Shown in pieces: positions 3,042 to 41,930 of a DNA stretch of 41,930 bases (position 1 is its first letter; every line of letters begins with the position of its first letter). The notes under the pieces were generated by a model that saw only the letters and a program-made list of their open reading frames with translations, was not told the DNA's origin and searched no databases. Location of the stretch: IMG/VR virus record IMGVR_UViG_3300029231_000022, positions 1-41,930 of that record. One strand, written 5' to 3'. Origin of the DNA: a virus. The translations under genes were made by a program, and so were the position numbers.

Positions 3042-3179
3042 TTCGCGGGGTCTCCCCCGTTAAAGCCACTCTTGTAGGGGCGGACGCCTCTGTCCGCCCG
3101 TCTGCCTTCCCCTTGAGGGGAAGGTGGCGCGAAGCGCCGGATGAGGAGAAGCGTTGTACATTCCGCGCTGTCGCCACGT
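3042..3179. repeat. Composite palindromic mini-element (intergenic, Prp/scaffold)
   Basis: Hairpin GGGCGGAC-GCCTCT-GTCCGCCC at 3078-3099. CCTTCCCC-TTGA-GGGGAAGG at 3105-3124, then T and GGCGC-GAA-GCGCC at 3126-3138. Tail is GTCGCCACGTT. Confidence 0.85.
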
Positions 3180-3500
3180 TTACTGCTCCCTCTCGAATCG
3201 CACATTCTGTGGATACTCATGCGCCACCATCTGCATCCCCAGCAGTGCCGTGTCCCACATCGCCCGCACCACCCGCTCACGCTTCGGCGCGCACGCAATG
3301 GTGATGTCTCCGGGCTGCATATCCACCACCGGCTCTGCCCGCAGCAGCCCCTCGCTTTCCGCTTTTAGGAGCATCCCGCCCAGCGCGTAGGAGAGGATCG
3401 TCACCGCCGCGCAGACAATATCCTGCCCCGCCGGAGCGTATCCCGCGTGCCCTGTGATCCGCAGGCTGTAGCCTTTACACTGGATGCTTATCATGCTCAC
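3180..3500 (-). CDS. prp: Prp-like cysteine protease (ribosomal-processing protease family)
   Basis: 106 aa with the GHAGYAPAGQDIVCAAV His/Cys motif typical of Prp/YsxB. Located between portal and scaffold. Confidence 0.8.
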   Translation of the reverse strand: MSMISIQCKGYSLRITGHAGYAPAGQDIVCAAVTILSYALGGMLLKAESEGLLRAEPVVDMQPGDITIACAPKRERVVRAMWDTALLGMQMVAHEYPQNVRFEREQ

Positions 3501-5407: not shown

Positions 5408-5420
5408 CCGTTTCTCCCAA

Positions 5421-5506
5421 GGCTTCCCTTGGTGACCAAGGGGAGCTGTCGCCGCAGGCGACTGAGGGGATCAGAACTCCCCCGCTCGCACCCGCTCCCG
5501 CGTTTG
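5421..5506. repeat. Palindromic mini-element filling the TerL-portal intergenic gap
   Basis: GCTTCCCTT-GGTGACC-AAGGGGAGC at 5422-5446. GTCGCC-GCA-GGCGAC at 5448-5462. Then TGAGGGGATCAGAAC and tail ...CGCGTTTGC abutting the TerL stop. Confidence 0.85.
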
Positions 5507-16189: not shown

Positions 16190-16645
16190 TCACCAATTCA
16201 CACACAATTCAAAGTCCGTGACCTCAAATCCAATTTCCGTACCTGCTCCTGTAGGGGCGGACGCCTCTGTCCGCCCATAGGCTCCCCTTGGTGACCAAGG
16301 GGAGCTGGCGCTGGAAGCGCCTGAGGGGATCAGAGCCTCCCCGCTTGCAGCCGCTTCCGCGTTCGCACCCTTGTCCAGATAGTTCCTCCCGAACTCCCGC
16401 GCAAAGTCCGCAGTGCTCCATCCCATCCTCTCCATCGCAAGCCGCTGCCCGTATTCGTGCAACGCCTGCGCCGTGTCGCGGCAGCGGTGCGCCGCCCGCT
16501 CGCCGAAGATGTGGCAGCTCCCGTGGCAAAGATCCACCACCAGCCCGAGCTTTTCGCTCTTCCGCCGGTTCGCCCCGCCGAAAATGTGGTGACGATCCAA
16601 CGGCTCATCCGCCCCGTTCTTCCCACACAGCCAGCACGTCCGCAT
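16190..16645 (-). CDS. HNH / His-Me-finger-like endonuclease with element-derived C-terminal insert
   Basis: CWLCG...LDRHHIFGG...LCHGSCH pattern. Residues ~100-135 are encoded by repeat modules. Confidence 0.5.
   Translation of the reverse strand: MRTCWLCGKNGADEPLDRHHIFGGANRRKSEKLGLVVDLCHGSCHIFGERAAHRCRDTAQALHEYGQRLAMERMGWSTADFAREFGRNYLDKGANAEAAASGEALIPSGASSASSPWSPRGAYGRTEASAPTGAGTEIGFEVTDFELCVNW
16249..16366. repeat. Palindromic mini-elements (two modules) in-frame in the HNH-like gene
   Basis: GGGCGGAC-GCCTCT-GTCCGCCC at 16255-16276. GCTCCCCTT-GGTGACC-AAGGGGAGC at 16281-16305. GGCGC-TGGAA-GCGCC at 16307-16321. Confidence 0.85.
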
Positions 16646-19609: not shown

Positions 19610-20176
19610 TTGACATCCACGGAGAAATTGCAGCCCTATTTTGAATCGTATTCACAGAAGATCAAGCAGCGGCGAAACGAACTTGGTATGTCCTCGAAAG
19701 CGCTCGCCGCAAAGTCCGGCGTCCCGTACTCAAACATTTGCCGCGTCGATACCGGCGCGCAGGCGAACCCGCTGCTCTATAACGCCGCCGCCACGGCTGA
19801 CGTTCTGGGTCTCTCGCTGGACGAGCTGTGCGGTCTTACCGTCCCCGAAAATAATACCGATGAGCTCAAATCCCGCTGCCGAAAGCTGGAGCTCGAAAAC
19901 GCCCGTCTTGCAGCCACAAGAGCCGCGCAGCATGAGCAGATCAAGGCTGTGCATTCCCTCTGCTACGTTCTGGTCTTTTTCTGCGTGCTGCTCGCGCTGT
20001 CTCTTGTTTCCTATCTGCTCATCGATTCGCAGGTCACCGACGCCGGGATCATTCGCGGCGGTAAGCTCTCCGTCGCTGCATGGCTTTTTATTTCCCTGAT
20101 CGCCGCCTCCGTCATTTCCATCGGCATCGTGATCCTGCTCATCATCCGTAAAGAACGCCGGGAGGTCTCCGCATAA
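19610..20176 (+). CDS. Membrane-anchored XRE-family HTH protein
   Basis: GGAGG, 8 nt, TTG. HTH is LGMSSKALAAKSGVPYSNICRV. A coiled-coil follows, then two C-terminal TM helices. Confidence 0.65.
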   Translation: MTSTEKLQPYFESYSQKIKQRRNELGMSSKALAAKSGVPYSNICRVDTGAQANPLLYNAAATADVLGLSLDELCGLTVPENNTDELKSRCRKLELENARLAATRAAQHEQIKAVHSLCYVLVFFCVLLALSLVSYLLIDSQVTDAGIIRGGKLSVAAWLFISLIAASVISIGIVILLIIRKERREVSA

Positions 20177-21243
20177 TGCAATGTCTCAAATGTAAAAAAG
20201 AAATCCCGCCTGACGCGCTGTTCTGCCCGTGGTGCGGCAGACGGCAGCAGCCGGAGGCGCGTAAGGCGCTCAAGCGCCCCAATGGCACCGGCTCTGTCTA
20301 TAAGCTCTCCGGCAGGCGCACGCGCCCATGGATCGCCACCCGCAGCAAGGTCGTCATCGGCTACTACGCCAAAAAGACCGAGGCGCTGGAGGCGCTCGCC
20401 CGCCTGCAAGGGCGCACTCTGGACGAGCGCTATAACATGACCTTCGCCGATGTCTATGCCGACTGGAAGCTGGAGCATTTCCGCACCATCGGTCCGCAGG
20501 GCGTCGAATCCTATACCCGCGCCTATGAGGTGTTCGCGCCCCTGCATAATAAAAAATTCCGCACGCTGCGCACGGCGGATTTTCAGTCTATCATCGACGC
20601 GCACCCGGAGCTGTCCTACTCGTCACTCTCCAAGTATAAGCAGCTCTGTACCCAGCTTGCGCGCTTCGCCATCCGTCAGGAGGTCTGCACCACGGACTTT
20701 GCCACCTTCATTAAGCTGCCGGAAAACGAGAAGCAGGAGAAAGAGATTTTCAGCGACGACGAGATCAAAAAGCTCATCGACGACGGAAGCGAGCCTGCAA
20801 AGATCGTTCTCATGCTGATCTATACGGGTATGCGCATTGGGGAGCTGTTCTCCCTCCCGCTCGCGGATTATCATGAGACATATTGCATCGGCGGCGAAAA
20901 GACAAAAGCCGGGCGCAACCGCGTCATTCCCATCCGCGCCCCCGCCCGTCCATACTTTGCCGATCTGTCCGCCAGAGCCTCCGACGACCTCCTGATCTCC
21001 GGCTACAAAGGGCAGCACAGCGTTCCCAACTTCCGCAGGCGGGACTACTACCCGCTCCTGGAGCGTTTGGGCATCGAAAAGAAAACGCCTCACGCCACCC
21101 GCCACACCTTCGCCTCGCAGGCAGTCTCCCGCGGTGTTCCTCGCGAGGTCCTTCAAAAGGTCCTCGGTCACGCCAGCTATACCACCACCGCCGATGTCTA
21201 TGTACACGCCGATATAGCCCAGCTCGTGAGCGCCATCGGCTGA
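20176..21243 (+). CDS. int: Tyrosine integrase with N-terminal zinc ribbon
   Basis: CLKC...CPWCG at the N-terminus. C-terminal catalytic region has HATRHTFAS, LGHASYTTT and VYVH. Confidence 0.9.
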   Translation: MQCLKCKKEIPPDALFCPWCGRRQQPEARKALKRPNGTGSVYKLSGRRTRPWIATRSKVVIGYYAKKTEALEALARLQGRTLDERYNMTFADVYADWKLEHFRTIGPQGVESYTRAYEVFAPLHNKKFRTLRTADFQSIIDAHPELSYSSLSKYKQLCTQLARFAIRQEVCTTDFATFIKLPENEKQEKEIFSDDEIKKLIDDGSEPAKIVLMLIYTGMRIGELFSLPLADYHETYCIGGEKTKAGRNRVIPIRAPARPYFADLSARASDDLLISGYKGQHSVPNFRRRDYYPLLERLGIEKKTPHATRHTFASQAVSRGVPREVLQKVLGHASYTTTADVYVHADIAQLVSAIG

Positions 21244-26962: not shown

Positions 26963-28468
26963 TCAATCATACGTCGTAACGCGAATCGGAATATTCACGG
27001 TCGGCGTGTCCACCGTCGCCGGGAATTTCACCGTCAGGCTGTTCGCCGCCGTATTCGCGATGGCGCTTGCCGAAATGCCCAGCCATGCCTTCGAAAGCTC
27101 CGCGTCTGCCGCTGCGTCTGTGCCGCTCAGTGCCACGTCCACGAACGGCGCGGCGTTGTAGCTGGCTTTCAGCCCCGTCACCGAGACTGTCTGCGTTTTC
27201 CATGTCCCCGAGGTCACCCATCCCGCAGCCGTCAGCGTCGCCGTGTACACCGCCCCGAGCGTGATGTCGCCGGATAATGCTTTGCCGTTTACCTTGCGGG
27301 AGGTCGGCACTGCCCCGACCTCACTCGCCGTGTAGGTCGGCTTTTCTTCCGCCTTCGCCCAGTCCGGCACGGTCGGGTCGGTCTCCGTGTAGCTCTGCAA
27401 CGCCGTATCCGCCTTGCCGAGCGACGTCTGCACGTCCTTCGCAAGGTCGGCTTTGGCGACCGTGGACTTAAATGCCATGCTGCCGAGGTCGGCAAAATAC
27501 CGATAGATCTTGCCAAACATTGTGGACAGCTTTTCACCCGCCTTGAGATTGCTGCGTGTTTCTGCAATGCTGATACCCGATGTCACATTGCTGCCGTCCC
27601 CGCTCTTGGCGAGCTTTGTGTCCGCTGTATCCTGCGCTCTCGTTGCCGCAATCTGCGCGCTGCTTGCAGCCGACTGCGCGCTGCTTGCGGCTGACTGTGC
27701 GCTGTCTGCGGCTGACTGTGCGCTGCTTGCGGCTGACTGTGCGCTGCTCGCCGCCGACGCCGCAGCAGTTGCTTCATCCATCGCCGCGCCCGCCTGTTCG
27801 TCCGCATACGCAAAAATGTCCTGCGCCTTGCCCTGCGGGTCGTAGGTGGACGTGTGCATATCGCCCGAGCCTGTCCCGTCCTGCCCGTCATTGATCTTGA
27901 ATACGTGATCCCCGTTCTCGTCCGTGATGGTCACGGTCGTCACCTTGCCGGTCTTGCTGATCTGCACCGTCGGGCTGTAGCCCGGTGCGCCCGTGCTGCC
28001 CTGCGGCCCGCGAATGTTTTTCGTCCCCGGGTTCTGCAGCCCGCCGTCGTTCGTCCACGAAAGCTCACCGTCGTCGTTCACGCTCGGCGTGAACCTGAAG
28101 CCCCGCGGCCCGCGGATGTTCTTCGTCGCCGGATTCTGCAGCCCGCCGTCGTTCGTCCACGAAAGCTCACCGTCGTCGCTGACCTCCGGCGTGAACCTGA
28201 AGCCCCGCGGCCCGCGAATGTTTTTCGTCGCCGGATTCTCAAGACCGCCGTTGTTCGTCCACGAAACATTGCCGCTGTCATCCACGCTCGGTGTGAACGT
28301 AAAGCCCCGCTCGCCCTGCGGTCCTACCGCGCTTCCAATGTCAGCCACCGTCCCGTCCGTCAGCGTCAGCAGCAGATGCCCGTTCTCGTCGATCTCCGCC
28401 GCTTTCACCCCGCGCGAAACGTAGCCATTCAGCCGCAGCACCGCCTCCGGCGGAAATTCATATACCAT
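26963..28468 (-). CDS. Tail fibre protein with internal repeats
   Basis: 501 aa. Three 34-aa repeats (GPRGFRFTP..D.GELSWTNDGGLQNP.TKNIR) and five SAASSAQ heptads. Also KPTYTASEVGAVP...VNGKALSGDITLG, a fibre-type motif. Confidence 0.75.
   Translation of the reverse strand: MVYEFPPEAVLRLNGYVSRGVKAAEIDENGHLLLTLTDGTVADIGSAVGPQGERGFTFTPSVDDSGNVSWTNNGGLENPATKNIRGPRGFRFTPEVSDDGELSWTNDGGLQNPATKNIRGPRGFRFTPSVNDDGELSWTNDGGLQNPGTKNIRGPQGSTGAPGYSPTVQISKTGKVTTVTITDENGDHVFKINDGQDGTGSGDMHTSTYDPQGKAQDIFAYADEQAGAAMDEATAAASAASSAQSAASSAQSAADSAQSAASSAQSAASSAQIAATRAQDTADTKLAKSGDGSNVTSGISIAETRSNLKAGEKLSTMFGKIYRYFADLGSMAFKSTVAKADLAKDVQTSLGKADTALQSYTETDPTVPDWAKAEEKPTYTASEVGAVPTSRKVNGKALSGDITLGAVYTATLTAAGWVTSGTWKTQTVSVTGLKASYNAAPFVDVALSGTDAAADAELSKAWLGISASAIANTAANSLTVKFPATVDTPTVNIPIRVTTYD
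27653..27757. repeat. 5 x 21-bp tandem repeat (coding SAASSAQ heptads)
   Basis: Units CTG(C/T)GCGCTG(C/T)(T/C)(T/C)GC(A/G/C)GC(C/T)GA start at 27653, 27674, 27695, 27716 and 27737. Confidence 0.85.
28005..28310. repeat. 3 x 102-bp tandem repeat (34-aa fibre repeat)
   Basis: GGCCCGCG(A/G)ATGTT recurs at 28005, 28107 and 28209. Confidence 0.85.
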
Positions 28469-28899: not shown

Positions 28900-31800
28900 T
28901 CACGAATCTTCCTTGTCCCATTTCATCATGTCGTTCCACTTTTCCATGTAGCCCGCCGCGCGGTAGAACACGTTCGCCTGCCTTGCGATCTCGTTCTTTT
29001 CCTGCCGGGTCTCGGCGGCTTTGTACAGGGGCTTGAAGTATCTCGTGATCTGCGAGGAGATGTCCCGCTTCTGCACGCCGTGGCTCAGATAGTATTGCAC
29101 TGTCTCCTTCGCGTCCGTGTTCTGCTCCATCGCGTCCGTCAGTTTGCCGTACTTGGAGTAGTCAGGTCCGCCCTTCCATTCCTCCAGCATCCAGTAGGTG
29201 TCGTCCTCGGATTCATTCAGATTCTTGCTCAGAATGCGCGTTGCCATCTTCTCGTCGATGCTGCCCGACTGGAATGCCTCCTTCACCTCCGCGATTACGC
29301 CCTTCTGTATCTCCTTCCGCGCGTCGCTGTCCGAAAGCCCCTCCTGCTCCTTGAGCGCCTTGAGCTGCGACTTGTAGATCGGCTCGTACCCGTCCAGCTT
29401 CAGATCTCGTATCTTGCGATACATCTGCGCATAGTTGGCTTTGCTCGCCCGGTCTCGTTTCGCCCGCGCCTCCTTCGCCGCCTGCTCCTCTTCCGAAATG
29501 GCGGTCGCCTCCGCGTTGTTGATCGCGCTCTGGACCTTCTCGTCCGCCAGTTCCTCATCTAGGTCCATGTAGGCGTCCAACTGCGCGCGCTCGGTGTCGC
29601 TCGCGATCACGTTGTAGTAATACAGCGCCTTTGCCTCGTCCGAAATGTCATAGTCCCGCAGCGCTTCGAGCTTTGCCGCCTTCTTGCTTACGCCCTCCGG
29701 CACGTCCACGTCCTTCATCGCCTGAATGAGTTTCCACGCCTCGCGCTGCTTCACGTCCGCCGCGCTCATCGCGAGGTACGCGTTCGTCTCCTTCGTGCTG
29801 AGTTTTGAGAATCCGCCCTGTACCCAATCGCGCGCCTCCTTCGTGGCGTTGCGTCCGAATACGCCTGCCTGCACGTCGCGCAGCACGGTCATCACGCCCT
29901 CGTCGGTAAACACCGGGTACTGCATCTGAAGCTCGCCCTTGTTGTTTCGGTAGAACTTGCCGCCCTTTGCCACGGCGTAAATGCCCTGCGCCACCTTGCG
30001 TATCTGCCCGCCTCCGAACGGCAGCCCCAGATACAGCAGCGGGTCTCGGACTTCCTCCCATAGCTTCGCGTTCTTCGTCTCGCTGTCTAGCTCCTTGTTC
30101 GTCGCCACCTTCCAGATCGCAGACACATCCGGCAGCGCCGAGGAAAACGGCACGCGTCCGCCGCCGAGCACCCCGCCTGCCATCGGCAGCTCCTCGGCGG
30201 TGCTCGTCAAAAAGTTCGTCACCGTGTTCCCAAAGCCCGCAGGCTTTCCCTCATGGATAAAGCCAGCCTCCGAGCCGAACGCCACGTCGAGGACGTTGTT
30301 GAGCTTATAACCCGTCGCGTCGCCCACCAGCTCGTTCGTCATGTCGATCGGGTCAAGCGCCGCCCGTCTGCCCACGACCTTCTCGTAGAGTTCGTTGTAT
30401 GCCCACGCCGAGAAAAACATCTTGAACAGCGCCCACGCCAGCGCCTGCAAGCTCCGCTTGCGCATCTCGCGCGGCAGGTCCTTGAAGATGTTGGAGAACT
30501 GATTGTTCACCTCCAACTGGAATTGTGTAAACAGCTTCACAAACGGGTTTCTGGACTGGAACATCGTCGGCGTCGCGCCCTTGCTTCTGTCCGCCATGAT
30601 GTTTGCCGCAAAGCGATCCGCCTCGCGCATCGCGTCCTCCTCCAGCATCCCGCGCCGGAGGTTTTGGTTGTACCGCGCCCGGACGATCGTGTCTGCCGTG
30701 AATGTGTCGATCCACTCCATGGGCATAGACAGCTTTGCGCTCAAATTTCCCTGCCATGTCCGCACCAGCGGATCGCTGCCCCGGCGGTTCGTCAGGAACG
30801 CGCTGCGCTCCCAAAAGCCGTCGTCGTTCTTCATCGCCGCGAGGGTCTGCCCCATCGCCTGCACCATATCGCCCGTGGATACATAGCCCCACGCCTGCGT
30901 CAGCGGAATAAAGTTCGTCAGCCACGACCCCGGATTCATCGCCACCATGTTTGCCGCCGCGCGGCTCTCCAGCCAGCTCATCGCGTTGTAGAACCCGCGC
31001 CCCAGCACGCTCTCCACGCCCCGGTCGAGCTTGCTCTTCTTGTTCGCCAGCAGGTTTGTGTACTCATCCAGCCACGCCGCAAAGCCTGAAAGCTCAAACT
31101 TTGCGTTCTCATAGAGGTCCTTGATGCGCAGTTCCTTGTCCTGCTCGCTGATGCTATCATCCGCCCGGATCGCATCCACCCGCTCGCGCACGCCCTCGTT
31201 CGATGTGCGGTATCGGACCTCCGAGGCAAATGCCCGCAGCCGCTGGATGTTGTCCGTCTGGAATACGATGTCCGCCGCGCCCTCGATGTACTTGTCAAAG
31301 CCCTCCACCGCGTCATACGCTGTGTTAAAGCCAAGGCGCTCCTGCGCGTTTCCAAACCATGTGATACCGGGCTTAAAGGTGTGTGTCAGTCCGTTGATGG
31401 TCGTCGGCAGCGCCGTCACATCCGCTTTGATGCCCAGCGCCTTGCCCATCACCGCCAGCACGCCGTCCGTCTGTCCCGGCTGGAAGTGCGGAAAATACCC
31501 CTTGCGGTAGTCGATCGGCTCATAGCCGTTGCGCACGCGCACGTCGTTCATCTGCGTAAACAGCTCGTCGTAGATCCTTCTGAACTCCCCAACGGCACGC
31601 TCGACCTTCTCCTTTCGGATTCCGGGGTTCTTCTCCCACAGCTCGCGTACCACGGCTTCCCACTCGGCAAGCGTCTTTCCGTCCCGCTTCGCGTCCATGG
31701 GGCGCTTTGTGAGCTGCCGGATGTTGTCCATCGCCTCTCCGTAGAGCTGCACCGCGTGCGCCTCGCTCACCACGTCCCCGGCTTTGACCTTCCGGCTCAG

Positions 31801-34800
31801 ATCCAGCTTTCTCACGCGAGCGCGGTATTCGTTCTTAAAGCGCGTGGACTTCGCCTGCTGCGTGTGTACCGGCTCAAAGATCGTCTCGTTGATCCTCTTC
31901 GCGTCCGCCGCCGGGAACACGTCCTCCACGTTCCGCTCCGCCGTCTCGCGGTCATACCGAAATCCCGGCGCAAGCCCCTTCTTGTCCTTCGCCTGTTCGC
32001 TGTTTGTAAGCAAAGGACGCACCTGCTCGCGGTAGTCCTCCTTCACGCCCCTGCGCCACCGGGCGATCTGCGCCGTGAGCGCGGCATAGTCTGCCTTTGC
32101 CTCGTACACGTTCAGAATGCTCTTCGCGTTCTTCCTGTCCTGAATGTCCTCCGGCGCAAGCTCTCCGCGCAGCAGCCGGTCCAGTATCCGCTCGTCCTCG
32201 TCCGTCAGCAGATTCTTGCTCTGCACCCGCTCATAGGCGCGTCTGGCTTCCCTCTGCCGCTTGTAGAGTTCTTCTACCTCCGCCTGCGACTTCGGCGCTT
32301 CCTGCGCCAGCTTCGTCCGCTCGCGGCTCTCTGCCCACGCTCTGGCGGTGCGCAGCGAGGCTTTCATGTCCTCCACGGCAGCCTCAAAGTCATGCCTTGC
32401 CCACCGCTTATAGTCCCCGCCGTCGCCCTTGTGCGCCTCGTCCAGCGTCTGCTTCGTGATCTGGATCTTATCCGCCACCTCGATCATGCGCATCAGCTGA
32501 TCCGCCGGGTTCATGATCGCCTCCGGGAACAGCCCCGGCGCTTCGTCGTGGAGCTCTCCGTACAGCGTGTCGATGCCGATGCCCTCGTTGTTGAGTAAGA
32601 TCTTCCCGCGCACCGCCCGCCGGAACTGCTCAAGGTCTGCAAACTCCGCCCGCACCTCCGGCGTCACCCGGATGCCCGTCTTGAGCAGCTTGTCGCGGAT
32701 GTGCTTGAAGTCGTGGAAGAACTCGTAGTTTACCTCAATGCCCTCGTCGTAGGCTTTGTCAAACGCTCGGTCGATGTCATTTTGCGCGATCTTGCCGGTT
32801 TTCAGGAACTCTTTCATCAGTTCTTGCAGCGCAGGTTTTACGATTCGCTGCTGTTCGTTGTACGGGACGCTCATTGCCCGTCCCGCCTGCCGCACCGCGC
32901 TGTTCACCGCCTGATCCACAAACGCCCGCGCCTTCCCCGGCAGCTTGTCGTAGCTGTACACCTTCGGCTTCTCTCCCGTCTCCGAAGCCTCCCCTTGGTG
33001 ACCAAGGGGAGGTGGCGCGGAGCGACGGAGGGGATCAGAACTACCCCCGTTCTGCTCTTCCGCCACGTTTGCTTCCGCGTTTGCATCCCGCGTCTCCGGC
33101 GATAGCTTTGCAGTCAGTCTCCCTGAATCGTCCAGCCTTACGACGTCAGAAAATTTTTCGCCGCGCAGGTTGACACTTCTGCCCTTGTAGGATATACTAC
33201 CGATATAACCGTTGCGCAGAAGCTCTCGGGACGCTATTGTAAGCCCGAATTGGCGAAGAAGCGCAGCGGTTCTTTTTTTGTCCGCATACAGTACCTCGCT
33301 CGCCTGCACGAACGCAGCCGGGTTTTTCTTCGTAAACGCCGTGTTCACCTTCTGCATATCGTCAAGCTGGAATCCGTTTTCCTGCGGTCTCAGATCCAGC
33401 ACCGTCAGAATTGGCTTTTCATTTTGCGCTTTCAGCGAACCGAAAATCACCAATCTGCTATTGTCGTTTCCGCGAGCATTCGTCCCTTTGCTTTTCAAGA
33501 TCATCACAGGATCGTCCAGAATTTCCGGGATTCGTTCGATCTCGCGCAGCGTCATTTCCGGGTGCTCCGCCAGAATGGTGCGGATTTTCTCGCCGTTCAT
33601 GTAGATGTCGCTTTCGATCGCGCCCAGCCCTTGCAGCACATCGCCCGTCGTGCCCAGCGTAAAAGAAGCATCCGACGGCATCCCGTCTCCCGCCCACTCC
33701 TTCAATTTTTCTGCATACGCAGCATCGACGCTGTACGCCTCCGGCGGACCTCTGGTCTGTGCCGGTTTTTTTGCGCTCTGGCTCGCGTTGCTGTCTGCGG
33801 CGGCTCTGACGCTGCTCTGGAGCTTGTCCGCGCCCAAGCCCATGCGGTTGATACCCGCGTAGGCGTCGCACACGATCTCGTCCAGATACGCGCTCAGATC
33901 CTCGCCTGTGTAGCAGCCCTCGTAGGCCTCGCAGTATTTCCGCGCCAGCTTATCCCGCTGCTCCCGCGAAAGCCCCAGCGCGTCGATCAGGCGCTCCCGC
34001 AGCCCCGGTTCTGCTTCCAGCCGCAGGTGCATCGCCTCGTGCTCGGCGGTCTTGATAACGCCGTCCTTCGCGTCAATGTTGATCCATACGGTCGTTCCCT
34101 GTGCAACACCCTGTACGCTCATCTCTCTGCCGCCTGCGGTCCTGATCCTGATCGACCCGCTCACAAGACGCACGTCGTCCGCGCCGGCATCTGTAAGGAT
34201 TTGCTTTGCCTGCTTGAGGGCGGGATATTCCTGCACCATCGCGTCCGGCACGCGGTAGAACATTTTCTGCTCCGAGCCGTTTTCGATCCCGTCCGCCTTT
34301 GGGCTTAACCGTTCCGCTTTCGCAGTGCCGAGGACACTTTGGATTCTAAGGCTTTCCTTGACGCCGAATCCGCCTGCGGATTCTTTCTCTGCTCCTCCTG
34401 CTCCTCTGCCCACGCGTCCAGACGGCTCATCGGAATCCATACCTGCATCCCGTTCGCCGCCGTTACCAATACCCGCTGTTCCATTTTCTTCTCCTTTCCG
34501 CCTGCCTTCCTTGTAGGCTTCCTGCAATACCTCGTCCGCAATGCCCCTCTGAGAATCCTCCCGCTTGAATTTCCAGCCGAACCGTCCCTTCCCGTAGGCG
34601 ACACGCACCGCCTCTGCATACGTCGGGATGTCCATCTGCACGCGGTCGTTTGCATCAAAATACCCGGAGATAAAATATTGCGTCATCGCAAAGCCGTATT
34701 CGCGCTGCTTTGCGATCCGCTCCAGCTCCGCCGCGTCCTGCTCCTCTGCCGCTCTCCTTGCCGCAAGCTCGGCGGCGCTCTCCTGCGCCTGTGCGGACTG

Positions 34801-37512
34801 CTCTGTCTCGCGCAGCTCCTTGTCGGATAGGGTCTGTGTCTCGCGTCCCATCTCCTTCTGCTGCCGCTCGTTCTCCAGCCGCGCCCGCGCAACGCTCGCC
34901 ACGTCCTGCATATCCCGCTCCTTCGCTTCCAGATACGCCTCGTCCTGCGCGATCTGCTCCCGCAGCTCCCGCACCCGCGCATTTATGGCTTCCCCTCGGG
35001 GGGAAGCTGTCGCCGTAGGCGACTGATGAGGGGAAGGCTCGTTATTTCTGACCTGCTGTGCGTTTGCTCCTTCCAGCCCCCGCAGCTCCGCCGTCCGCGC
35101 ATCGTACTCCTTTAGCCGCGCCTTATACTCGCGCAGCGTGTCTCCGACCTTCCCGAACAGCTTGTCGCCCTTCACGCGCCCGCGTACATCCTCCTGCCCC
35201 GCCTGCCGCAAGACCGTCCGCACCTCCGGCTCACCGTTCGCACCCACGGTTTCCTGCGCACCTGTAGGGGCGGACGCCTCTGTCCGCCCGGCGTTCTCCG
35301 TTCCGACCTGCCGCGCGTTTGCACTCTCCAAAGCCTCCCCTTGGTGACCAAGGTAGCGAAGCGGCGGCGCGGTGTTATCAGACAGCCCGGTGGGCTGTCT
35401 GTCCCGCGCCGTGACCGAGCCGTAGCGAGACGGTGGCGCGGAGCGCCGGAAGGGATCAGAACTACCCCCGTTCTGAGCTGCCGCCACGTCTGCCTCCAGC
35501 TCCATATTGTCCGGCAGCCCGTCCCCGTCCTCGTCGATCACGTCCATATTGGACGGAATGTCGTCCTCCACGTCCATATTCTCCGGCAAATCTGCCGGGC
35601 GCTGCACGCCGATTGTCGGCACGGTATCCCCTGCCTTCCCCTCGGGGGGAAGGTGGCGCGAAGCGCCGGATGAGGGGAAGGCTTCCCCGCTTGCAGCCGT
35701 TGCCGCGTTTCCTCCCGTCACCGGCGTATTCGGCGTATCGCTCGCGCCGGTACGGAACGCGTCCTCGATCTCGCTCGTCAGCAGCCGCACCGTCTGTGCG
35801 CCTACGCCCGACGTGCCCGCCGCTGCCGCAGCAGTGCCCGTATCGCCCGCGAGCATGATGTTGATATTCCCGATGGCAACGTCCAAGCCCTTCTGGATGT
35901 CGTTCACGAACTCCTGCTGTCCGGCGTAGTAGGTGCTTCCCACCTCCGCCTTTAGTTCCTTCACATGCGTCCGCAGGTCACGCAGCGCCTGCTCATATTC
36001 CTCCTGCGTCGCATACTGCCTGCCGTTCATGTGGTTCTGGATGGCGTCAAACTCCTGCGTGATCTGGTCATACTTTGCCTTGACCTGCTCGCTCGCCGCC
36101 TTCGTGCTCCGCATGGCGCTCAGGTAGCCGTCCACCATCGCGAATGCAAACGACATTCCAAGCTCCGTGGCGATCTCTTCCTTCGTCATCTTCCGCCCGG
36201 ACGCCACGGCACTCACCCCGGTGTTCGCCGCCGAGAACGTCGCCGATGCCGCCGTCTGCCGCAGATACTCCTTGAACGGCGTCATCATCTGCTTGTCCGT
36301 CAGCAGCTTCGCAACGCCCGACGATACCAGCCCCGACGCAATCGACCCCGCCGCGCCGCCTGCCGCGCTGGCAAGCGTGCGCTGCGCGAATTGCCCGCCG
36401 GTCATCTCGCCCGTGGCAAGACCGCCCGCGCTCTGGATCGCCTCCCGCGCCGCAAACGAAAGCGCCGTCTGTCCTGCGGAAATTGCCGCCTGTCCCAGCT
36501 TTGTTGCGCCCAGCGCCGTCTTTGCAAGCGCACCCGCCGCAGGGTTGAGTGCCCCCTGCGTCAGCAGTGCCGTGCCCGCTCCAATGCCGACCTTGGTCGC
36601 CCAGGTAATACCCGGCTCTGCCGCCTGCGCCTGCTTTCCCGCCTGCTCCGAGCTTTGCAGCGTCTTGATGCCCGTCTCATCTCCTGCCGCCGCAGCGCGC
36701 AGCTTCGCCATGGATAAAAGCCCCGTGGATTCCACCGCCGCCGACCGAAACGCCGTGCTCTTCGGATGCAGCCGCGCGTAAAGCTGGTCGTAGATTGCGA
36801 CCTGCCGGGTGTATTCCTCGTTGTCTCCGCGCATATACGCGTCCCACGCCGGGGCGTAGTCCGACGGATTGTACGCGTTGCCGGTCAGGTTCTGCACCTG
36901 CGCCGCCTTCAGCAGCGCCTTTGCTGCCTTCTTCTCGTCCTCGCCCCACTGCATCCTGCTCAACATCTCGCCGCGCTTGGCAATGCCCTCCGTGTCCGTG
37001 GGCGTCTGTGCCAGCACCTTCTTGAAAAGATCGTCCGCCCAGTGCCCCTGCCACTTCTTCATTGCCGCGTCGCTGCCGTGGTCGCCGTAGTCGATCGCCG
37101 GCGCTTCTTCCTTGGGCGTCGTATCCTGCCGGTATCTTCCCAGCGCCCCCATAGTCGGCGTGTCCAGCGAATAAGCCGGCTTTCCCGCCGTCATCCCGCG
37201 CATCGCCCTGTACCGCTGCTGCGTGATGCTGTCCACCGCCGCCTTGTACTGCTCAAACGTCACCCCGCCCTGCGCCTTGTACCGCTCCTGCGTCAGACTG
37301 TCCGAGCCTGCCTCCCCTTGGTGACCAAGGGGAGGTGGCGCGGAGCGCCGGAGGGGATCAGAACTATCCCCTCTCCGAGTTGTTGCCACGTTCGCCGCCG
37401 GCGCGGCAGCCGCCCCGCTCTTTCGATAGCTGCCGCTCTGCTTATACTCCGTCCATTTCCCCGTCCGGCGCTCCTGCTCCTGCTGTTTTTTATACTCGCT
37501 CCATGCTCCCAT
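28900..37512 (-). CDS. Giant 2870-aa virion-block protein (multidomain; possible polyvalent/ejection protein)
   Basis: Single uninterrupted ORF. Gly/Ala-rich hydrophobic stretch at aa ~300-440. HEAMH (HExxH) at nt 34027-34041. Six in-frame repeat-element insertions. Confidence 0.85.
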   Translation of the reverse strand: MGAWSEYKKQQEQERRTGKWTEYKQSGSYRKSGAAAAPAANVATTRRGDSSDPLRRSAPPPLGHQGEAGSDSLTQERYKAQGGVTFEQYKAAVDSITQQRYRAMRGMTAGKPAYSLDTPTMGALGRYRQDTTPKEEAPAIDYGDHGSDAAMKKWQGHWADDLFKKVLAQTPTDTEGIAKRGEMLSRMQWGEDEKKAAKALLKAAQVQNLTGNAYNPSDYAPAWDAYMRGDNEEYTRQVAIYDQLYARLHPKSTAFRSAAVESTGLLSMAKLRAAAAGDETGIKTLQSSEQAGKQAQAAEPGITWATKVGIGAGTALLTQGALNPAAGALAKTALGATKLGQAAISAGQTALSFAAREAIQSAGGLATGEMTGGQFAQRTLASAAGGAAGSIASGLVSSGVAKLLTDKQMMTPFKEYLRQTAASATFSAANTGVSAVASGRKMTKEEIATELGMSFAFAMVDGYLSAMRSTKAASEQVKAKYDQITQEFDAIQNHMNGRQYATQEEYEQALRDLRTHVKELKAEVGSTYYAGQQEFVNDIQKGLDVAIGNINIMLAGDTGTAAAAAGTSGVGAQTVRLLTSEIEDAFRTGASDTPNTPVTGGNAATAASGEAFPSSGASRHLPPEGKAGDTVPTIGVQRPADLPENMDVEDDIPSNMDVIDEDGDGLPDNMELEADVAAAQNGGSSDPFRRSAPPSRYGSVTARDRQPTGLSDNTAPPLRYLGHQGEALESANARQVGTENAGRTEASAPTGAQETVGANGEPEVRTVLRQAGQEDVRGRVKGDKLFGKVGDTLREYKARLKEYDARTAELRGLEGANAQQVRNNEPSPHQSPTATASPRGEAINARVRELREQIAQDEAYLEAKERDMQDVASVARARLENERQQKEMGRETQTLSDKELRETEQSAQAQESAAELAARRAAEEQDAAELERIAKQREYGFAMTQYFISGYFDANDRVQMDIPTYAEAVRVAYGKGRFGWKFKREDSQRGIADEVLQEAYKEGRRKGEENGTAGIGNGGERDAGMDSDEPSGRVGRGAGGAEKESAGGFGVKESLRIQSVLGTAKAERLSPKADGIENGSEQKMFYRVPDAMVQEYPALKQAKQILTDAGADDVRLVSGSIRIRTAGGREMSVQGVAQGTTVWINIDAKDGVIKTAEHEAMHLRLEAEPGLRERLIDALGLSREQRDKLARKYCEAYEGCYTGEDLSAYLDEIVCDAYAGINRMGLGADKLQSSVRAAADSNASQSAKKPAQTRGPPEAYSVDAAYAEKLKEWAGDGMPSDASFTLGTTGDVLQGLGAIESDIYMNGEKIRTILAEHPEMTLREIERIPEILDDPVMILKSKGTNARGNDNSRLVIFGSLKAQNEKPILTVLDLRPQENGFQLDDMQKVNTAFTKKNPAAFVQASEVLYADKKRTAALLRQFGLTIASRELLRNGYIGSISYKGRSVNLRGEKFSDVVRLDDSGRLTAKLSPETRDANAEANVAEEQNGGSSDPLRRSAPPPLGHQGEASETGEKPKVYSYDKLPGKARAFVDQAVNSAVRQAGRAMSVPYNEQQRIVKPALQELMKEFLKTGKIAQNDIDRAFDKAYDEGIEVNYEFFHDFKHIRDKLLKTGIRVTPEVRAEFADLEQFRRAVRGKILLNNEGIGIDTLYGELHDEAPGLFPEAIMNPADQLMRMIEVADKIQITKQTLDEAHKGDGGDYKRWARHDFEAAVEDMKASLRTARAWAESRERTKLAQEAPKSQAEVEELYKRQREARRAYERVQSKNLLTDEDERILDRLLRGELAPEDIQDRKNAKSILNVYEAKADYAALTAQIARWRRGVKEDYREQVRPLLTNSEQAKDKKGLAPGFRYDRETAERNVEDVFPAADAKRINETIFEPVHTQQAKSTRFKNEYRARVRKLDLSRKVKAGDVVSEAHAVQLYGEAMDNIRQLTKRPMDAKRDGKTLAEWEAVVRELWEKNPGIRKEKVERAVGEFRRIYDELFTQMNDVRVRNGYEPIDYRKGYFPHFQPGQTDGVLAVMGKALGIKADVTALPTTINGLTHTFKPGITWFGNAQERLGFNTAYDAVEGFDKYIEGAADIVFQTDNIQRLRAFASEVRYRTSNEGVRERVDAIRADDSISEQDKELRIKDLYENAKFELSGFAAWLDEYTNLLANKKSKLDRGVESVLGRGFYNAMSWLESRAAANMVAMNPGSWLTNFIPLTQAWGYVSTGDMVQAMGQTLAAMKNDDGFWERSAFLTNRRGSDPLVRTWQGNLSAKLSMPMEWIDTFTADTIVRARYNQNLRRGMLEEDAMREADRFAANIMADRSKGATPTMFQSRNPFVKLFTQFQLEVNNQFSNIFKDLPREMRKRSLQALAWALFKMFFSAWAYNELYEKVVGRRAALDPIDMTNELVGDATGYKLNNVLDVAFGSEAGFIHEGKPAGFGNTVTNFLTSTAEELPMAGGVLGGGRVPFSSALPDVSAIWKVATNKELDSETKNAKLWEEVRDPLLYLGLPFGGGQIRKVAQGIYAVAKGGKFYRNNKGELQMQYPVFTDEGVMTVLRDVQAGVFGRNATKEARDWVQGGFSKLSTKETNAYLAMSAADVKQREAWKLIQAMKDVDVPEGVSKKAAKLEALRDYDISDEAKALYYYNVIASDTERAQLDAYMDLDEELADEKVQSAINNAEATAISEEEQAAKEARAKRDRASKANYAQMYRKIRDLKLDGYEPIYKSQLKALKEQEGLSDSDARKEIQKGVIAEVKEAFQSGSIDEKMATRILSKNLNESEDDTYWMLEEWKGGPDYSKYGKLTDAMEQNTDAKETVQYYLSHGVQKRDISSQITRYFKPLYKAAETRQEKNEIARQANVFYRAAGYMEKWNDMMKWDKEDS
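32985..33090. repeat. Palindromic mini-element, in-frame in the giant ORF
   Basis: CCTCCCCTT-GGTGACC-AAGGGGAGG at 32988-33012, plus the B and C modules and tail. Flanked by CGTCTCCG at 32977-32984 and 33091-33098. Confidence 0.85.
34988..35067. repeat. Palindromic mini-element (TCGG-loop type), in-frame in the giant ORF
   Basis: GCTTCCCC-TCGG-GGGGAAGC, T, GTCGCC-GTA-GGCGAC, then TGATGAGGGGAAGG. Confidence 0.85.
35262..35322. repeat. GGGCGGAC-GCCTCT-GTCCGCCC hairpin module, in-frame in the giant ORF
   Basis: Same 22-nt hairpin as at 3078 and 16255. Tail is ...CCGCGCGTTTGC. Confidence 0.8.
35332..35494. repeat. GGTGACC-type element interrupted by a 78-nt nested hairpin insert
   Basis: The A hairpin is truncated after AAGG (35353). 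Insert 35354-35431 contains GGCGCGG..AGACAGCCC-GGT-GGGCTGTCT..CCGCGCC. The element resumes at GGTGGCGCGGAGCGCC. Confidence 0.8.
35633..35712. repeat. Palindromic mini-element (TCGG-loop type), in-frame in the giant ORF
   Basis: CCTTCCCC-TCGG-GGGGAAGG, T, GGCGC-GAA-GCGCC, then GGATGAGGGGAAGGCTTCCCC. Confidence 0.85.
37308..37396. repeat. Palindromic mini-element near the giant ORF N-terminus (aa ~38-68)
   Basis: Three clean hairpins: CCTCCCCTT/AAGGGGAGG, GGCGC/GCGCC and GAGGGGA-TCAGAACTA-TCCCCTC. Confidence 0.85.
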
Positions 37513-38614: not shown

Positions 38615-38947
38615 TTAGCCCCCTTTTCTGGTTTCTGCGCTTGGCTCTCCCTTTGGGAGAGCTGTCGCCGTAGGCGACTGAGAGGGTTCACCCTCCGCCC
38701 CCCTTGCCTTCCCCTCGGGGGGAAGGTGGCGCGAAGCGCCGGATGAGGGGAAGGGCTGTGCGCTCTGCTCTGTCTGCACGTTCACTTCCGCGTTTTCGCC
38801 CTCCCGCAGTTCCCGCTCCACGACCGTCAGCAGCTCCGCCCGCAGTTCCCGCAGGCACTGCTCCGCCGCCAGCGGCGGCAGGGCGGAATCGTTGATCGCC
38901 TGCACAATATCGTCCCGCAGCTTAAAATACCGTTTCGTAAAATTCAT
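38615..38947 (-). CDS. 110-aa protein whose C-terminal half is repeat-element encoded
   Basis: The N-terminal ~55 aa look ordinary (MNFTKRYFKLRDDIVQAINDS...). Residues ~50-110 map onto the modules at 38643-38800. Confidence 0.55.
   Translation of the reverse strand: MNFTKRYFKLRDDIVQAINDSALPPLAAEQCLRELRAELLTVVERELREGENAEVNVQTEQSAQPFPSSGASRHLPPEGKARGAEGEPSQSPTATALPKGEPSAETRKGG
38643..38800. repeat. Two tandem palindromic mini-elements inside the 3' half of 38615..38947
   Basis: GCTCTCC-CTTTG-GGAGAGC with GTCGCC-GTA-GGCGAC. Then CCTTCCCC-TCGG-GGGGAAGG with GGCGC-GAA-GCGCC and a tail. Confidence 0.85.
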
Positions 38948-40177: not shown

Positions 40178-41930
40178 ACATCACTCCCCGCCTCCAGCAC
40201 GCGCGACAGCGAAAGCAGCCGGAAATCCCCCGTGCCGGATATTTTGAATTGCAGGTGGTCGCACCGCCGCGGGCGGATCGGGAGCAGAAACGATCGAATG
40301 CCCCGCCCCTCCATGTGCCCGCAGTGCCGCCACTGCTTGTCAGAATCATATTGCACCCAAAAATCGCACCGTGACCCCCGCGGAAGCTGCATCCGCAGAT
40401 TCAGCCGCGAGATGTATTTCTTGCCCACCAAGCCGTAGGTCATGATGCCGGTCTCCGCCCACCACGAAACAGGCGCTTCCGGCGTGCCCTCCTGCCCCAT
40501 CAGGTCCAAAACCGTCACGCTCCCGCTCTGATCCTTCGCCGCGTAGAGCGTATCCCTGCCGCTCGTGAGCGCTGTGAGCGTTTCTGCGCCGCTTTCCGCG
40601 TGCCATAGCCCCCGCATCGTGTCGTACACAAAAAGCCGCTGTGCGCCGTCCGGCGCGCTCATGGCGATGTAATACTTGCCCCGTGCGGTCGCCGCCATTG
40701 CGTTTTTGTAGAGGATGCCGCCCAGCGCGTCCGAAATGCGGGACGGCGCGCCCCCGTCGTAGCGGTACACGCCCAGCCGCGACTTGTAGTACAAAACGTT
40801 ATCGACCACGCACAGGCTCTTGCCCGACCCGTCCTGCACGCCCTCGCAGGTGAGCTGCACCACCTGATGTGCGCCCTTGCTGGACGGATACACCCTGTGG
40901 ATAAAATCCTCCTTGAAAAACATCGGGCTGTCGTTATACGTCGCCGCGCCCGTCCACTTCCCGTCCGTGCCGACGCTCGCCCGGTACGAATCGGTCGAAA
41001 TGCCCATGTAGCACTCCCAGTTGCGGAAGTCTCCCAGCTTGCAGCAGTAAATTTCGTTCAGCATATCGCCGTCCTGCCCCACGCCGTAATAGCAGCCCCA
41101 AAGCCGGTTGCCGCACTCCGTCACATAGTCCAGCTCCGGCAGGCGGCGGTTCGTGATAATTTCCCCGCTCGTCTGCTCTGCTGTGGTATCCAGAATGCCG
41201 GTGATGATGATGTAGTCGTCCGCCGCGCCGTATAAAACGTGCGACCCGTTCAGCGCCTTCGCCTGCTCCGTCCCTGTGATGCCGCTCAAAATGATCCCGT
41301 CGTACTGCTTCATGCCCACGCCGATGCCGCCGAGCGATAATTTCACATACGTCGTCGCCACCTGCACCCACTGTGCCGAGCTTGCCGACCACTGCTTGAG
41401 CGCGTGCGGCTCAGAGCCTGTGTCCACCCAATACATCCCGTTCGTGCGGTCTGTCGGCTCTGTGTCCGTCGCCGAGGCTGTAATGCCCGCCCCATCCGGC
41501 GTGCAGAGCGTGATCGTCAGCTTCGCCGCGCTCGTCGGCGTCACGGTGTTCTTGCGCGCCATGTACCCGGCGTCCATTGGTTTGAGCGTGTTGTAGTAAA
41601 TGCCGTCCGGGAATATGCAGAGGTAAGCGCCCATGCTCACGAGCTGCTTTTCCCCCGCCGTGAGCGTCACGCCCTGCGGCAGCTCCTGCAAAATGCCCCC
41701 GCAGTAAAGCCCTGGCAGCGTTGCTCCCTGCCACACATACCACAGCACGCCGTCCCGCGCCGTCCAGCCCAGGAGCGACCCTTCGCCCAGCGCCTTCAGC
41801 GTGCTCCGCCGCATACGCGGCGCAAGCATCGGGAAGTAGTCTCCCGTTAAATTCTCAAGGTCGTAAAACGCCCCGTCCTGTATCTGGAGGTTGTGGTCGT
41901 AGCCGTAAAAGACCTCCGTCACCGCCTGCT
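40174..41930 (-). CDS. Virion structural protein (596 aa when joined to 133..100), function unknown
   Basis: The ORF runs off the window end and continues at nt 100-133 through the 99-bp overlap. W/Y/G-rich, beta-rich appearance. Confidence 0.7.
   Translation of the reverse strand, partial: QAVTEVFYGYDHNLQIQDGAFYDLENLTGDYFPMLAPRMRRSTLKALGEGSLLGWTARDGVLWYVWQGATLPGLYCGGILQELPQGVTLTAGEKQLVSMGAYLCIFPDGIYYNTLKPMDAGYMARKNTVTPTSAAKLTITLCTPDGAGITASATDTEPTDRTNGMYWVDTGSEPHALKQWSASSAQWVQVATTYVKLSLGGIGVGMKQYDGIILSGITGTEQAKALNGSHVLYGAADDYIIITGILDTTAEQTSGEIITNRRLPELDYVTECGNRLWGCYYGVGQDGDMLNEIYCCKLGDFRNWECYMGISTDSYRASVGTDGKWTGAATYNDSPMFFKEDFIHRVYPSSKGAHQVVQLTCEGVQDGSGKSLCVVDNVLYYKSRLGVYRYDGGAPSRISDALGGILYKNAMAATARGKYYIAMSAPDGAQRLFVYDTMRGLWHAESGAETLTALTSGRDTLYAAKDQSGSVTVLDLMGQEGTPEAPVSWWAETGIMTYGLVGKKYISRLNLRMQLPRGSRCDFWVQYDSDKQWRHCGHMEGRGIRSFLLPIRPRRCDHLQFKISGTGDFRLLSLSRVLEAGSDV
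41832..41930. repeat. Second copy of the 99-bp terminal repeat
   Basis: Identical to nt 1-99. Confidence 0.95.

Follow-up and report, generated by a model that had tools for sequence, protein, structure and literature searches.

The DNA analysed here, a viral stretch of 41,930 nt (positions 1 to 41,930 of IMG/VR virus record IMGVR_UViG_3300029231_000022) referred to below as the window, is a circular contig of ~41.8 kb whose bases 1-99 recur at 41832-41930, and it belongs to a temperate tailed phage of the P22-portal type. The minus strand of this genome carries, at 28900-37512, a giant open reading frame (ORF) of 2870 amino acids (aa), in which aa 1312-1415 form a MuF_C domain and an HExxH motif is found at aa 1158. 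A preliminary description, made from the letters alone, had noted four modules between 34988 and 35712 of this ORF, and had taken the segment for an insertion hotspot within an inter-domain linker. The evidence presented below suggests that these modules are probably host repeats resembling repetitive extragenic palindromic (REP) sequences and bacterial interspersed mosaic elements (BIMEs), which entered a disordered linker and a helix turn of a phage polyvalent protein in frame and have been turning over there.

Because relatives of the giant protein add ART-PolyVal, PBECR3 and LPD domains, in varied combinations, to the MuF_C domain found in the window, the protein can be classed as polyvalent in the sense of Iyer et al. 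2017 (PMC5512222), according to whom such proteins are predicted to be packaged in the virion, with some being self-processed by an embedded metallopeptidase. Its general features are those of this class, as it is very large and multi-domain, has effector domains that can be swapped, and is encoded among virion genes, its neighbours being portal, capsid and tail-like genes. The MuF_C domain is its sole above-threshold match in Pfam; searches of PHROGs, NCBIfam and the Protein Data Bank (PDB) sequences gave no match to the protein, and megablast of its gene against deposited phage genomes gave none either.

The four modules proved to be genuine repeats, every one of them being placed in a multi-copy family by a repeat finder. 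The segment 35632-35713 is 78-84% identical to 3103-3184 and 38705-38786, and 35258-35289 is 97% identical to 16245-16276 and 94% identical to 3068-3099; 35408-35500 and 35306-35365 are members of families D1 and D3 (5 and 6 copies), and 34986-35030 matches families D9 and D11. Motif scans of the window revealed 15 modules at 12 loci, one strand throughout, with nine of the 12 loci residing within ORFs and three between genes; the giant ORF itself contains seven modules at six element-bearing positions. The unit types were named A, B, B', B'' and C. Read in the sense of the mRNA, an A- or B-type unit is ~80 nt long. It opens with a head (GCAAACGYGGCG...), which is conserved, and after a middle part come two palindromes, of which the first (hairpin 2) varies and the second (hairpin 1) is conserved, A units having CTCCCCTTGGTCACCAAGGGGAG and B units having CTTCCCCCCGAGGGGAAG as hairpin 1. 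The C unit is a GC-rich palindrome that opens with GTAG on the opposite strand. In the order in which they are translated, the modules and the native sequences between them are:

35632-35712, minus strand: module 4 (site 4), B-type, consisting of a head, a hairpin GGGGAAGCCTTCCCC, hairpin 2 GGCGCTTCGCGCC and hairpin 1 CTTCCCCCCGAGGGGAAG, and encoding GNAATAASGEAFPSSGASRHLPPEGKA (aa 601-627).
35488-35583, minus strand: acidic stretch ENMDVEDDIPSNMDVIDEDGDGLPDNMELEAD (aa 644-675), native and without element origin.
35332-35494, minus strand: module 3, A-type, with the head GCAGACGTGGCGGCAGCTCAGAAC, then GGGGGTAGTTCTGATCCC, hairpin 2 GGCGCTCCGCGCC and hairpin 1 CTTGGTCACCAAGGGGAGG, encoding aa 674-727.
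35260-35322, minus strand: module 2, C-type, a head-like sequence followed by a GTAG-tagged REP hairpin, encoding ANARQVGTENAGRTEASAPTG (aa 731-751).
35068-35235, minus strand: charged helix (aa 760-815), GEPEVRTVLRQAG...YDARTAELRGLEG, native and not derived from elements.
34987-35067, minus strand: module 1 (site 1), B'-type, with the head GCAAACGCACAGCAGGTCAGAAATAAC, hairpin 2 GTCGCCTACGGCGAC and hairpin 1 CTTCCCCCCGAGGGGAAG, encoding ANAQQVRNNEPSPHQSPTATASPRGEA (aa 816-842).

Module 3 is a composite, in which the A unit is broken by a 75-nt palindromic piece (~35356-35430). In module 2 the GTAG tag occupies 35264-35267 on the plus strand and is followed by GGGCGGAC GCCTCT GTCCGCCC; the same tag is present in plus-strand C units at 3074-3077 and 16251-16254. 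In RNA folding, a reference A unit, modules 1 and 4 and the 75-nt piece had z-scores between -2.4 and -4.2, with module 4 folding at -39.9 kcal/mol (z = -2.4), module 1 at z = -3.6 and the 75-nt piece at z = -3.7 and -4.2. A 65-nt window over module 2 is unremarkable overall (z = -0.6), yet it holds an 8-bp GC stem. The peptide SAPPPLGHQGEA exemplifies what the elements add to the giant protein, and native sequence passes into element sequence at ...NMELEADVAAAQNGGSSDPFR and ...SPHQSPTATASPR.

As had been proposed, the modules (aa 601-842) are situated between a Gly/Ala-rich region (aa ~268-410) and the HExxH motif. The accompanying estimate that ~240 residues are almost entirely element-derived or of low complexity holds in part: ~53% of the 243 aa are element-encoded and ~20% belong to the acidic stretch and a short spacer, but ~23% form a conserved helix, which the same description had mentioned. 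At the giant-ORF positions and in three other ORFs the elements are read in frame without stop codons, and A units share one reading frame at six different sites. Sense orientation is shared by every module at every phage locus, the three intergenic copies among them. Since an A unit placed in reverse also has two open frames, as read from its sequence, this uniform orientation is not explicable by stop codons.

Comparison with 49-50 relatives sharing the flanking anchors reveals that the occupants of these sites differ from one protein to the next, with the number of proteins given in brackets:

Sites 3+2, between NMELE and EPEVRT (49 proteins, seven architectures): A (8), A+C (16), A-nested (4), A-nested+C (5, window included), B' (8), B''+C (7), A plus a bare C hairpin (1).
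Site 1, between TAELRGLE and ELREQ: B' (37), B' variant (3), B'+C (6), A or A plus a partial unit (4).
Site 4, between TPNTPVTGG and ENMDV: B (15), a PBECR3 domain of 224-231 aa (12), a 67-aa PBECR3 remnant (2), B''-like (1).

With seven, about four and four combinations at sites 3+2, 1 and 4, respectively, the segment is an insertion hotspot, as the preliminary description had supposed. At the DNA level the flanks align nearly base for base, with different occupants between them. The C insertion measures exactly 81 nt, is flanked by GCAAAC and GCGAAC, and has its empty site in relatives L002 and L005; the nested piece measures exactly 75 nt, is bordered by TCGCTAC repeats (read from the sequence), and is absent from the A unit of L002 and present in that of L005. 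These length differences all preserve the frame. C hairpins are always located directly downstream of an A or B unit, and because the order in host arrays is the same, the inserted pieces look like array segments. Across the whole protein family, elements occupy ~6 positions, three of which fall within the 243-aa stretch, and the C-terminal ~1300 aa, which are conserved, are free of them in every relative. When 1.84 billion representative proteins were searched exhaustively with the A-unit peptide, only two clusters were returned, both from this phage lineage, and in-frame use of the A unit therefore seems peculiar to it; a 62-aa element peptide found no match in a set of 5.8 billion proteins, probably through a word-index limit. 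Further DNA relatives in IMG/VR amount to 2-3 contigs, all of the same lineage; ENA assemblies seem to contain relatives by the hundred.

These comparisons bear on the possibility that the modules are no part of the protein at all, either because the gene was miscalled or misassembled, or because they are removed in the manner of an intron. Repeats shared by phage and host can cause misassembly, and the hairpins are strongly structured. Nevertheless, the 56 full-length close or moderately close relatives of the giant protein (2571-3516 aa) are each encoded by one single ORF, elements stand in frame in a single ORF in more than 50 independent assemblies, four other proteins share the exact architecture of the window at sites 3+2, and the variants differ by in-frame lengths only. 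A search of the window with Rfam 15, introns and ribozymes included, gave no family at the gathering threshold, and no tRNAs were found. A plus-strand CUGAUGAG string in module 1 was considered as a possible hammerhead ribozyme and rejected, its GAAA element and stem arrangement being missing. We consider it very improbable that the modules are absent from the protein.

If host repeats are retained in the protein, the places that accept them might be expected to tolerate added residues, as the description of this segment as a permissive linker implies. AlphaFold2, applied to aa 508-962 with a 10-sequence alignment, predicts aa ~555-758, which include modules 4, 3 and 2 and the acidic stretch, without secondary structure and at a pLDDT below 50, and with the same alignment predicts helices (pLDDT 77-93) at aa 761-823 and from aa 838 on. 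The middle of module 1, PSPHQSPTATASPR (aa 824-837), is predicted as a short coil between these two long helices (pLDDT 80-93). Thus three of the modules are placed in an apparently disordered inter-domain linker, as proposed, but module 1 sits in a helix-helix turn and not in the linker. The more distant homologues P0050-52, 55, 56 and 58 (six proteins) are element-free at all three sites, having a Gly/Gln/Pro-rich stretch at site 4, SGAEDAGAANAAETGTGTQTEQSTASGAQEVS at sites 3+2 and the short turn AQTTDPERS at site 1; their native linker is shorter, rich in Gly, Gln, Pro and Thr, and predicted to be disordered. For P0050, most of the equivalent linker (segment residues 50-190) scores a pLDDT below 50 in AlphaFold, and the place of module 1 is taken by a 3-residue break between two helices. 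In the linker part, no conserved folded domain shared with element-free homologues was predicted, which supports the reading of this segment as permissive to insertions. The sites holding elements, which are by these models a disordered linker and a helix-helix turn, together with the C-terminal tails of small ORFs, are places where insertions should leave the fold undisturbed.

The native sequences between the modules are conserved. The short charged helix named as a separator is confirmed as a helix (pLDDT 77-93), is also helical in element-free P0050, and is conserved as EPEVRTxLR...YKxRLxxYD, in which E-P-E-x-R-T-x-L-R, Y-K-x-R and Y-D are invariant. The acidic spacer had been regarded as mere low complexity, which does not describe it: aa 643-675 (35488-35586) contain three PxNM[DE][VL] motifs, PENMDV, PSNMDV and PDNMEL, the first of which starts at Pro643. 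The P, N and M of these motifs are invariant in 10 of 10 aligned sequences, down to 43% identity and with element-free homologues included, and the pattern is found nowhere else in the six-frame translation of the window. The motifs may constitute a new short linear motif in a disordered region.

In L096, the phage that encodes P0050, no hairpin elements were found in the 30 kb examined. The native linker DNA at its sites 3+2 (L096:12030-12460) contains the head-like strings GCGAACGCAGCGGAAACGGGAAC...GCAGACGGAAC and encodes ...AANAAETGTGTQTEQ..., recalling the head peptide ANVATEQ. These strings may be decayed old elements or a preferred target sequence.

That these could be processing linkers, should the giant protein be cut by proteolysis, was suggested in the preliminary description and accords with speculation published on polyvalent proteins (PMC5512222). 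The position of the elements in linkers would also be compatible with their co-option at the protein level, as flexible linkers or as cleavage sites, with the HExxH region of the protein itself or a Prp-type protease of the phage as the cutter. Such a role would accord with the packaging predicted for polyvalent proteins and the self-processing predicted for some of them (PMC5512222), with the location of elements at or near module junctions (aa ~40-70, ~600-650 and ~1469-1517), with the occupation of sites 3 and 1 in every close relative, and with the single frame of A units at six sites; the phage also encodes a Prp homologue, and the third PxNM motif, NMELEAD, partly resembles LNIQLLA|D. 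On the other hand, the unrelated peptides PPPLGHQGEA, SPHQSPTATASPRGEA and GRTEASAPTG interchange at one site, which argues against a sequence-specific cleavage site, native linkers suffice in element-free homologues, and the conserved parts of the region are the PxNM motifs and the helix rather than the elements. The Ala-Asp of NMELEAD is not kept in distant homologues, and the giant protein contains no LNIQLLA-like site; for these two reasons Prp sites were also set aside as an explanation of the PxNM motifs. Overall, we think protein-level co-option of the elements unlikely.

The sequence ...LNIQLLAD is found at the start of both the capsid protein (800-2080) and a 283-aa scaffold-like protein (2103-2954), which are encoded on the minus strand, and it resembles the site cut by Prp in ribosomal protein L27 and in certain Firmicutes phages. 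The Prp homologue is a 106-aa ORF at 3180-3500 (minus strand), recognized by synteny with the related prophage L001.

The origin proposed above, from repeats of a bacterial host, draws on copies outside the phage. When one genome per species was scanned for exact matches to the A hairpin, 88 stretches were returned, all from metagenome-assembled genomes of Oscillospiraceae/Clostridiales, for example Candidatus Avoscillospira species, and one uncultured Oscillospiraceae assembly contains at least 20 copies. The host units form arrays, occur in both orientations and adjoin GTAG hairpins, of which there are 127 matches in 593 kb of host loci; host A units are located mostly between genes or near ORF ends. 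Each phage module has a host counterpart, with 88-100% identity over ~50-108 nt. Thus, host copies match module 4 at 94% identity over 49 nt, a host B' unit matches the whole of module 1 at 87.7% (81 nt), a composite host unit, an A unit with the 75-nt piece, matches module 3 at 90.7% over 108 nt, and an exact 26-mer of module 2 is present at host loci L010 and L011. Host variants of the GTAG hairpin keep the stem with differing sequences, and hairpin 2 of A units exists in more than 15 distinct stem sequences, all self-complementary and many opening with CGTC. In hairpin 2 of a module-1-type unit, a compensatory pair distinguishes the window from L003 (GTCGCC/GGCGAC versus GTCGGC/GCCGAC). Hairpin 2 contains too few informative mismatches for G:T and A:C pairs to show which strand folds. 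On sequence grounds, the modules are units of REP/BIME-like palindromic arrays of Oscillospiraceae genomes, and the host is likely to be an Oscillospiraceae bacterium.

One host locus includes a gene for a candidate mobilizing enzyme. At L025:130-900, in Candidatus Avoscillospira stercorigallinarum and just upstream of a gyrA-like gene, there is a REPtron-like locus with GTAG-tagged hairpin pairs, in which 323-808 encodes a 161-aa IS200-like Y1_Tnp protein (PF01797, E = 6e-11) with an HVHLL motif, and GTAGGGGCGGCC...GGCCGCCC hairpins are present on both sides of this Y1 transposase gene. A related prophage, whose giant protein is 64% identical to that of the window, resides in a 114-kb bacterial contig (L001), with smpB less than 2 kb past the last phage-like gene (L001:25600-28475).

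The giant proteins differ among relatives in more than their elements. Comparison of the window protein with its relatives shows recurrent homology breakpoints at aa ~600-649, ~1260-1283, ~1469 and ~2710-2770; the first zone includes module 4 and the third abuts an A unit at aa 1478-1517, whereas the other two are without an element. Site 4 is a module junction: relatives have a PBECR3 nuclease domain in place of module 4, or else another N-terminal module of ~700 aa, attached at the acidic motif. The variant blocks that flank the aa 1478 element are combined independently of each other among relatives. From these observations a role for the units as nucleic acid could be envisaged, either as mRNA hairpins by which the 8.6-kb transcript is stabilized or segmented or ribosomes are made to pause between domains, or as portable homology that drives module shuffling. 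The coincidence of two breakpoints with elements and the independent assortment of the blocks would be accommodated, as would the stable hairpins kept by compensatory change and the sense orientation of even the intergenic copies, which are free of coding constraint and in a unit whose reverse would offer two open frames. However, two of the breakpoints have no element, the N-terminal module swap joins at the acidic motif and not at an element, sites 3/2 and 1 are not module-swap points, and element-free related phages have the same gene layout. Strand-specific single-strand transposition, or gene conversion between co-oriented copies, would also lead to uniform orientation. A function in RNA or recombination is improbable in our judgement, although, with breakpoints coinciding in part with elements, we find it a more interesting reading than a cleavable linker.

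The entry of host repeats into permissive places of the protein would proceed as follows. The protein appears to offer two such places, a natively disordered inter-module linker at aa ~590-758 and the tip of a helix-turn-helix at aa ~816-842. Selfish repeats of the likely host would enter the phage as pieces of arrays and survive only in frame, in disordered segments, turns or tails able to absorb residues rich in Gly, Ser, Pro, Ala and Arg; the ribosome most likely reads through them, and selection would clear insertions from folded regions. Once present, elements may attract further elements, new units being placed beside or inside existing ones or replacing them. Two routes, of which one or both may operate, can be proposed: single-strand transposition of the kind associated with REP-associated tyrosine transposases (RAYTs), and recombination or gene conversion between shared heads, for which the temperate lifestyle would provide the opportunity. 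The uniform orientation would fit either strand-specific insertion or copying between co-oriented units.

Several observations weigh against this account or limit it. The alignments behind the structure predictions are shallow overall (7-10 sequences). As stand-alone evidence of clustering, the scan statistic for at least four modules within 725 nt is weakly significant (P ~0.009-0.027) and is inflated, because modules tend to adjoin one another; the case for a hotspot is carried by the comparative evidence, which is stronger. The 593 kb of host loci include only one Y1 transposase gene, in one host genome, and although the hairpins that flank it have GTAGGGGCGG.../...CCGCCC ends in common with module 2, their central parts are different. 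The window ORFs that were checked yielded no transposase gene, and A and B units lack both the GTAG tag and a known mobilizing enzyme. The GCAAAC/GCGAAC and TCGCTAC flanks are explained by recombination between repeats at least as well as by transposition. The host assignment is based on the shared repeats and one prophage-bearing contig (ERZ27287265 k141_35730). Among relatives that share an element, the residues it encodes are not clearly more variable than the flanks, in protein sets that differed between segments, and near-neutrality of the insertions is accordingly presumed. Translation of the elements is something that we infer from preservation of the frame in more than 50 independent assemblies, and we likewise infer the mobilization mechanism, the direction from host to phage and the near-neutrality.

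A bolder form of the same account would hold that these linkers are largely built from, and continually remodelled by, host REP/BIME arrays, that the Y1 transposase and the arrays invade phage coding DNA, that only disordered junctions accept the units, that the units serve as portable recombination junctions which speed the shuffling of effector domains, and that the head-like strings of L096 are decayed remnants. We regard this full combination as rather unlikely.

Outside the 725-nt segment, the following element-bearing positions lie within ORFs:

32960-33079, minus strand: a further A unit of the giant ORF (aa ~1478-1517), directly past the recurrent homology breakpoint at aa 1469.
37283-37402, minus strand: another A unit of the giant ORF, close to its N-terminus (aa ~38-70), where relatives have B'', B', C or none.
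38656-38786, minus strand: B'' and B units in the C-terminal tail of a small ORF (38615-38947), a second site with variable occupants.
16245-16366, minus strand: an in-frame A-like unit with a C hairpin after it, close to the C-terminal end of ORF 16190-16645; hairpin 1 is read in a different frame.

The protein encoded by the small ORF 38615-38947 is 63 aa long in an element-free phage and 91-110 aa elsewhere; homologues are found at L001:8619-8894, L002:614-898, L003:569-898, L004:580-870 and L096:8721-8912, and, outside the element-free phage, the tails are built of A, A plus partial, B+B'' or B+C units. ORF 16190-16645 encodes a small Cys/His-rich protein in which the frame through hairpin 1 of the A-like unit gives SSPWSPRG, and its relative P0093 has an A unit in the standard frame at the same site. 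An A-like unit between the terminase and portal genes (5410-5507) extends from immediately behind the terminase stop codon to shortly before the ribosome-binding site of the portal gene, and in a relative (L098:9080-9230) the unit is the same apart from a different hairpin 2. Variable occupancy of a single site is therefore seen at these two small ORFs and this intergenic copy as well. Tandem repeats were observed within a 501-aa ORF (26963-28468), at 27611-27778 and 27982-28310, one with a 21-nt period and SAASSAQ-type peptide repeats, the other with three copies of a 102-nt period encoding ...SWTNDGGLQNPATKNIRGPRGFRFTP.... The minus strand carries most of the large family-matched ORFs, virion genes included, and the remaining assigned genes are:

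3497-5407: P22-type portal.
5507-6859: large terminase subunit.
800-2080, minus strand: capsid protein.
20176-21243, plus strand: integrase.
A further window ORF: helix-turn-helix (HTH) regulator.

In-frame palindromic repeats are already known, and it is host REP arrays turning over in the linker of a phage virion protein that look new; the literature searched contained no report of host REP/BIME units in phage genes or in the linkers of polyvalent proteins. If our interpretation is correct, a compact phage genome can absorb selfish repeats of its host in essential-looking virion genes, provided that they are in frame and in disordered sequence. Near-identical phages with differing occupants at one codon position would then be a natural experiment on the rate of REP turnover and the selection acting on it, and the shared repeats could serve as a host marker, pointing to Oscillospiraceae for an uncultured gut phage lineage. 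For annotation there is a warning, as the repeat-derived half of the 243 aa can confuse homology searches, domain boundaries and assemblies. Should the units promote module exchange, mobile repeats would be tied to the diversification of injected phage effectors.

Among systems already described, the polyvalent proteins of Iyer et al. 2017 (PMC5512222) share with the present case a giant multi-module ORF, a MuF_C (PBECR) domain, a location among virion genes and swapped domains. Unlike that work, which concerns domain shuffling and possible self-processing, and in whose text a term search found neither "linker" nor "low-complexity", the present analysis finds host repeats at the junctions.

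Two other kinds of element resemble the units less closely. The terminal inverted repeats, of 15-30 bp, that mark miniature inverted-repeat transposable elements, or MITEs, were missing, the unit ends GCAAACG... and ...GGGGAGGC not being mutual inverted repeats and the palindromes being internal; the possible target-site duplications GCAAAC/GCGAAC and TCGCTAC can also be read as parts of repeat units. The only sub-threshold Rfam hits were whalefall-1 and atpB. Whalefall-1 (RF01762) bears a weak likeness to the plus strand of two B-type units, at 34986-35039 and 38704-38756, which have a CUCC...GGAG-type hairpin, a second hairpin and AGGG-GAGG, but the scores are 17.8-19.1 bits against a gathering threshold of 37 (E = 0.24-0.65) and the matches are antisense to the genes, which makes this a lead and not a membership. 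Whalefall-1 itself may be a REP-like repeat of similar layout.

Classical REPs, which are imperfect palindromes of ~20-40 nt rich in GC, are almost wholly extragenic and chromosomal, in contrast to the present units, which are inside phage ORFs, in single orientation and in frame, and of which the A and B types are without GTAG and longer than a REP. The C units are nearest to GTAG REPs, being GC-rich imperfect palindromes of ~26 nt that start with GTAG, are highly repeated and are mostly extragenic in Oscillospiraceae; hairpin 1 of A, B and B' units is palindromic without the tag. Dispersed, mainly extragenic copies are thus found in the presumed hosts, and the phage, with nine of 12 loci in ORFs, departs from this norm. 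A REPtron is defined by REPs flanking a RAYT gene (PMC3733652), and this is how the Y1 gene of L025, the one host genome in which such an association was seen, is arranged, with related hairpins on both sides. Intragenic REPs have been reported, including a shared site in Xanthomonas recB (PMC3733652).

A close parallel is provided by the Rickettsia palindromic elements (RPEs), short palindromic repeats that occur in frame in protein-coding genes of Rickettsia (PMC3733652) and for which CGTC was given as the tag by Di Nocera et al. (PMC3733652). Here too, short palindromes are read in frame in presumably functional genes, and hairpin 2 of A units often starts with CGTC, the likeness being one of layout and tag. 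The carriers differ, RPEs residing in Rickettsia chromosomes and the present units in a phage that bears the repeats of its presumed host. The units described here are also composite, with a head and two or three hairpins, occur in arrays, and are replaced by other types at one codon position among near-identical genomes. They may be viewed as a phage counterpart of the RPE phenomenon for which the presumed donor genome can be identified.

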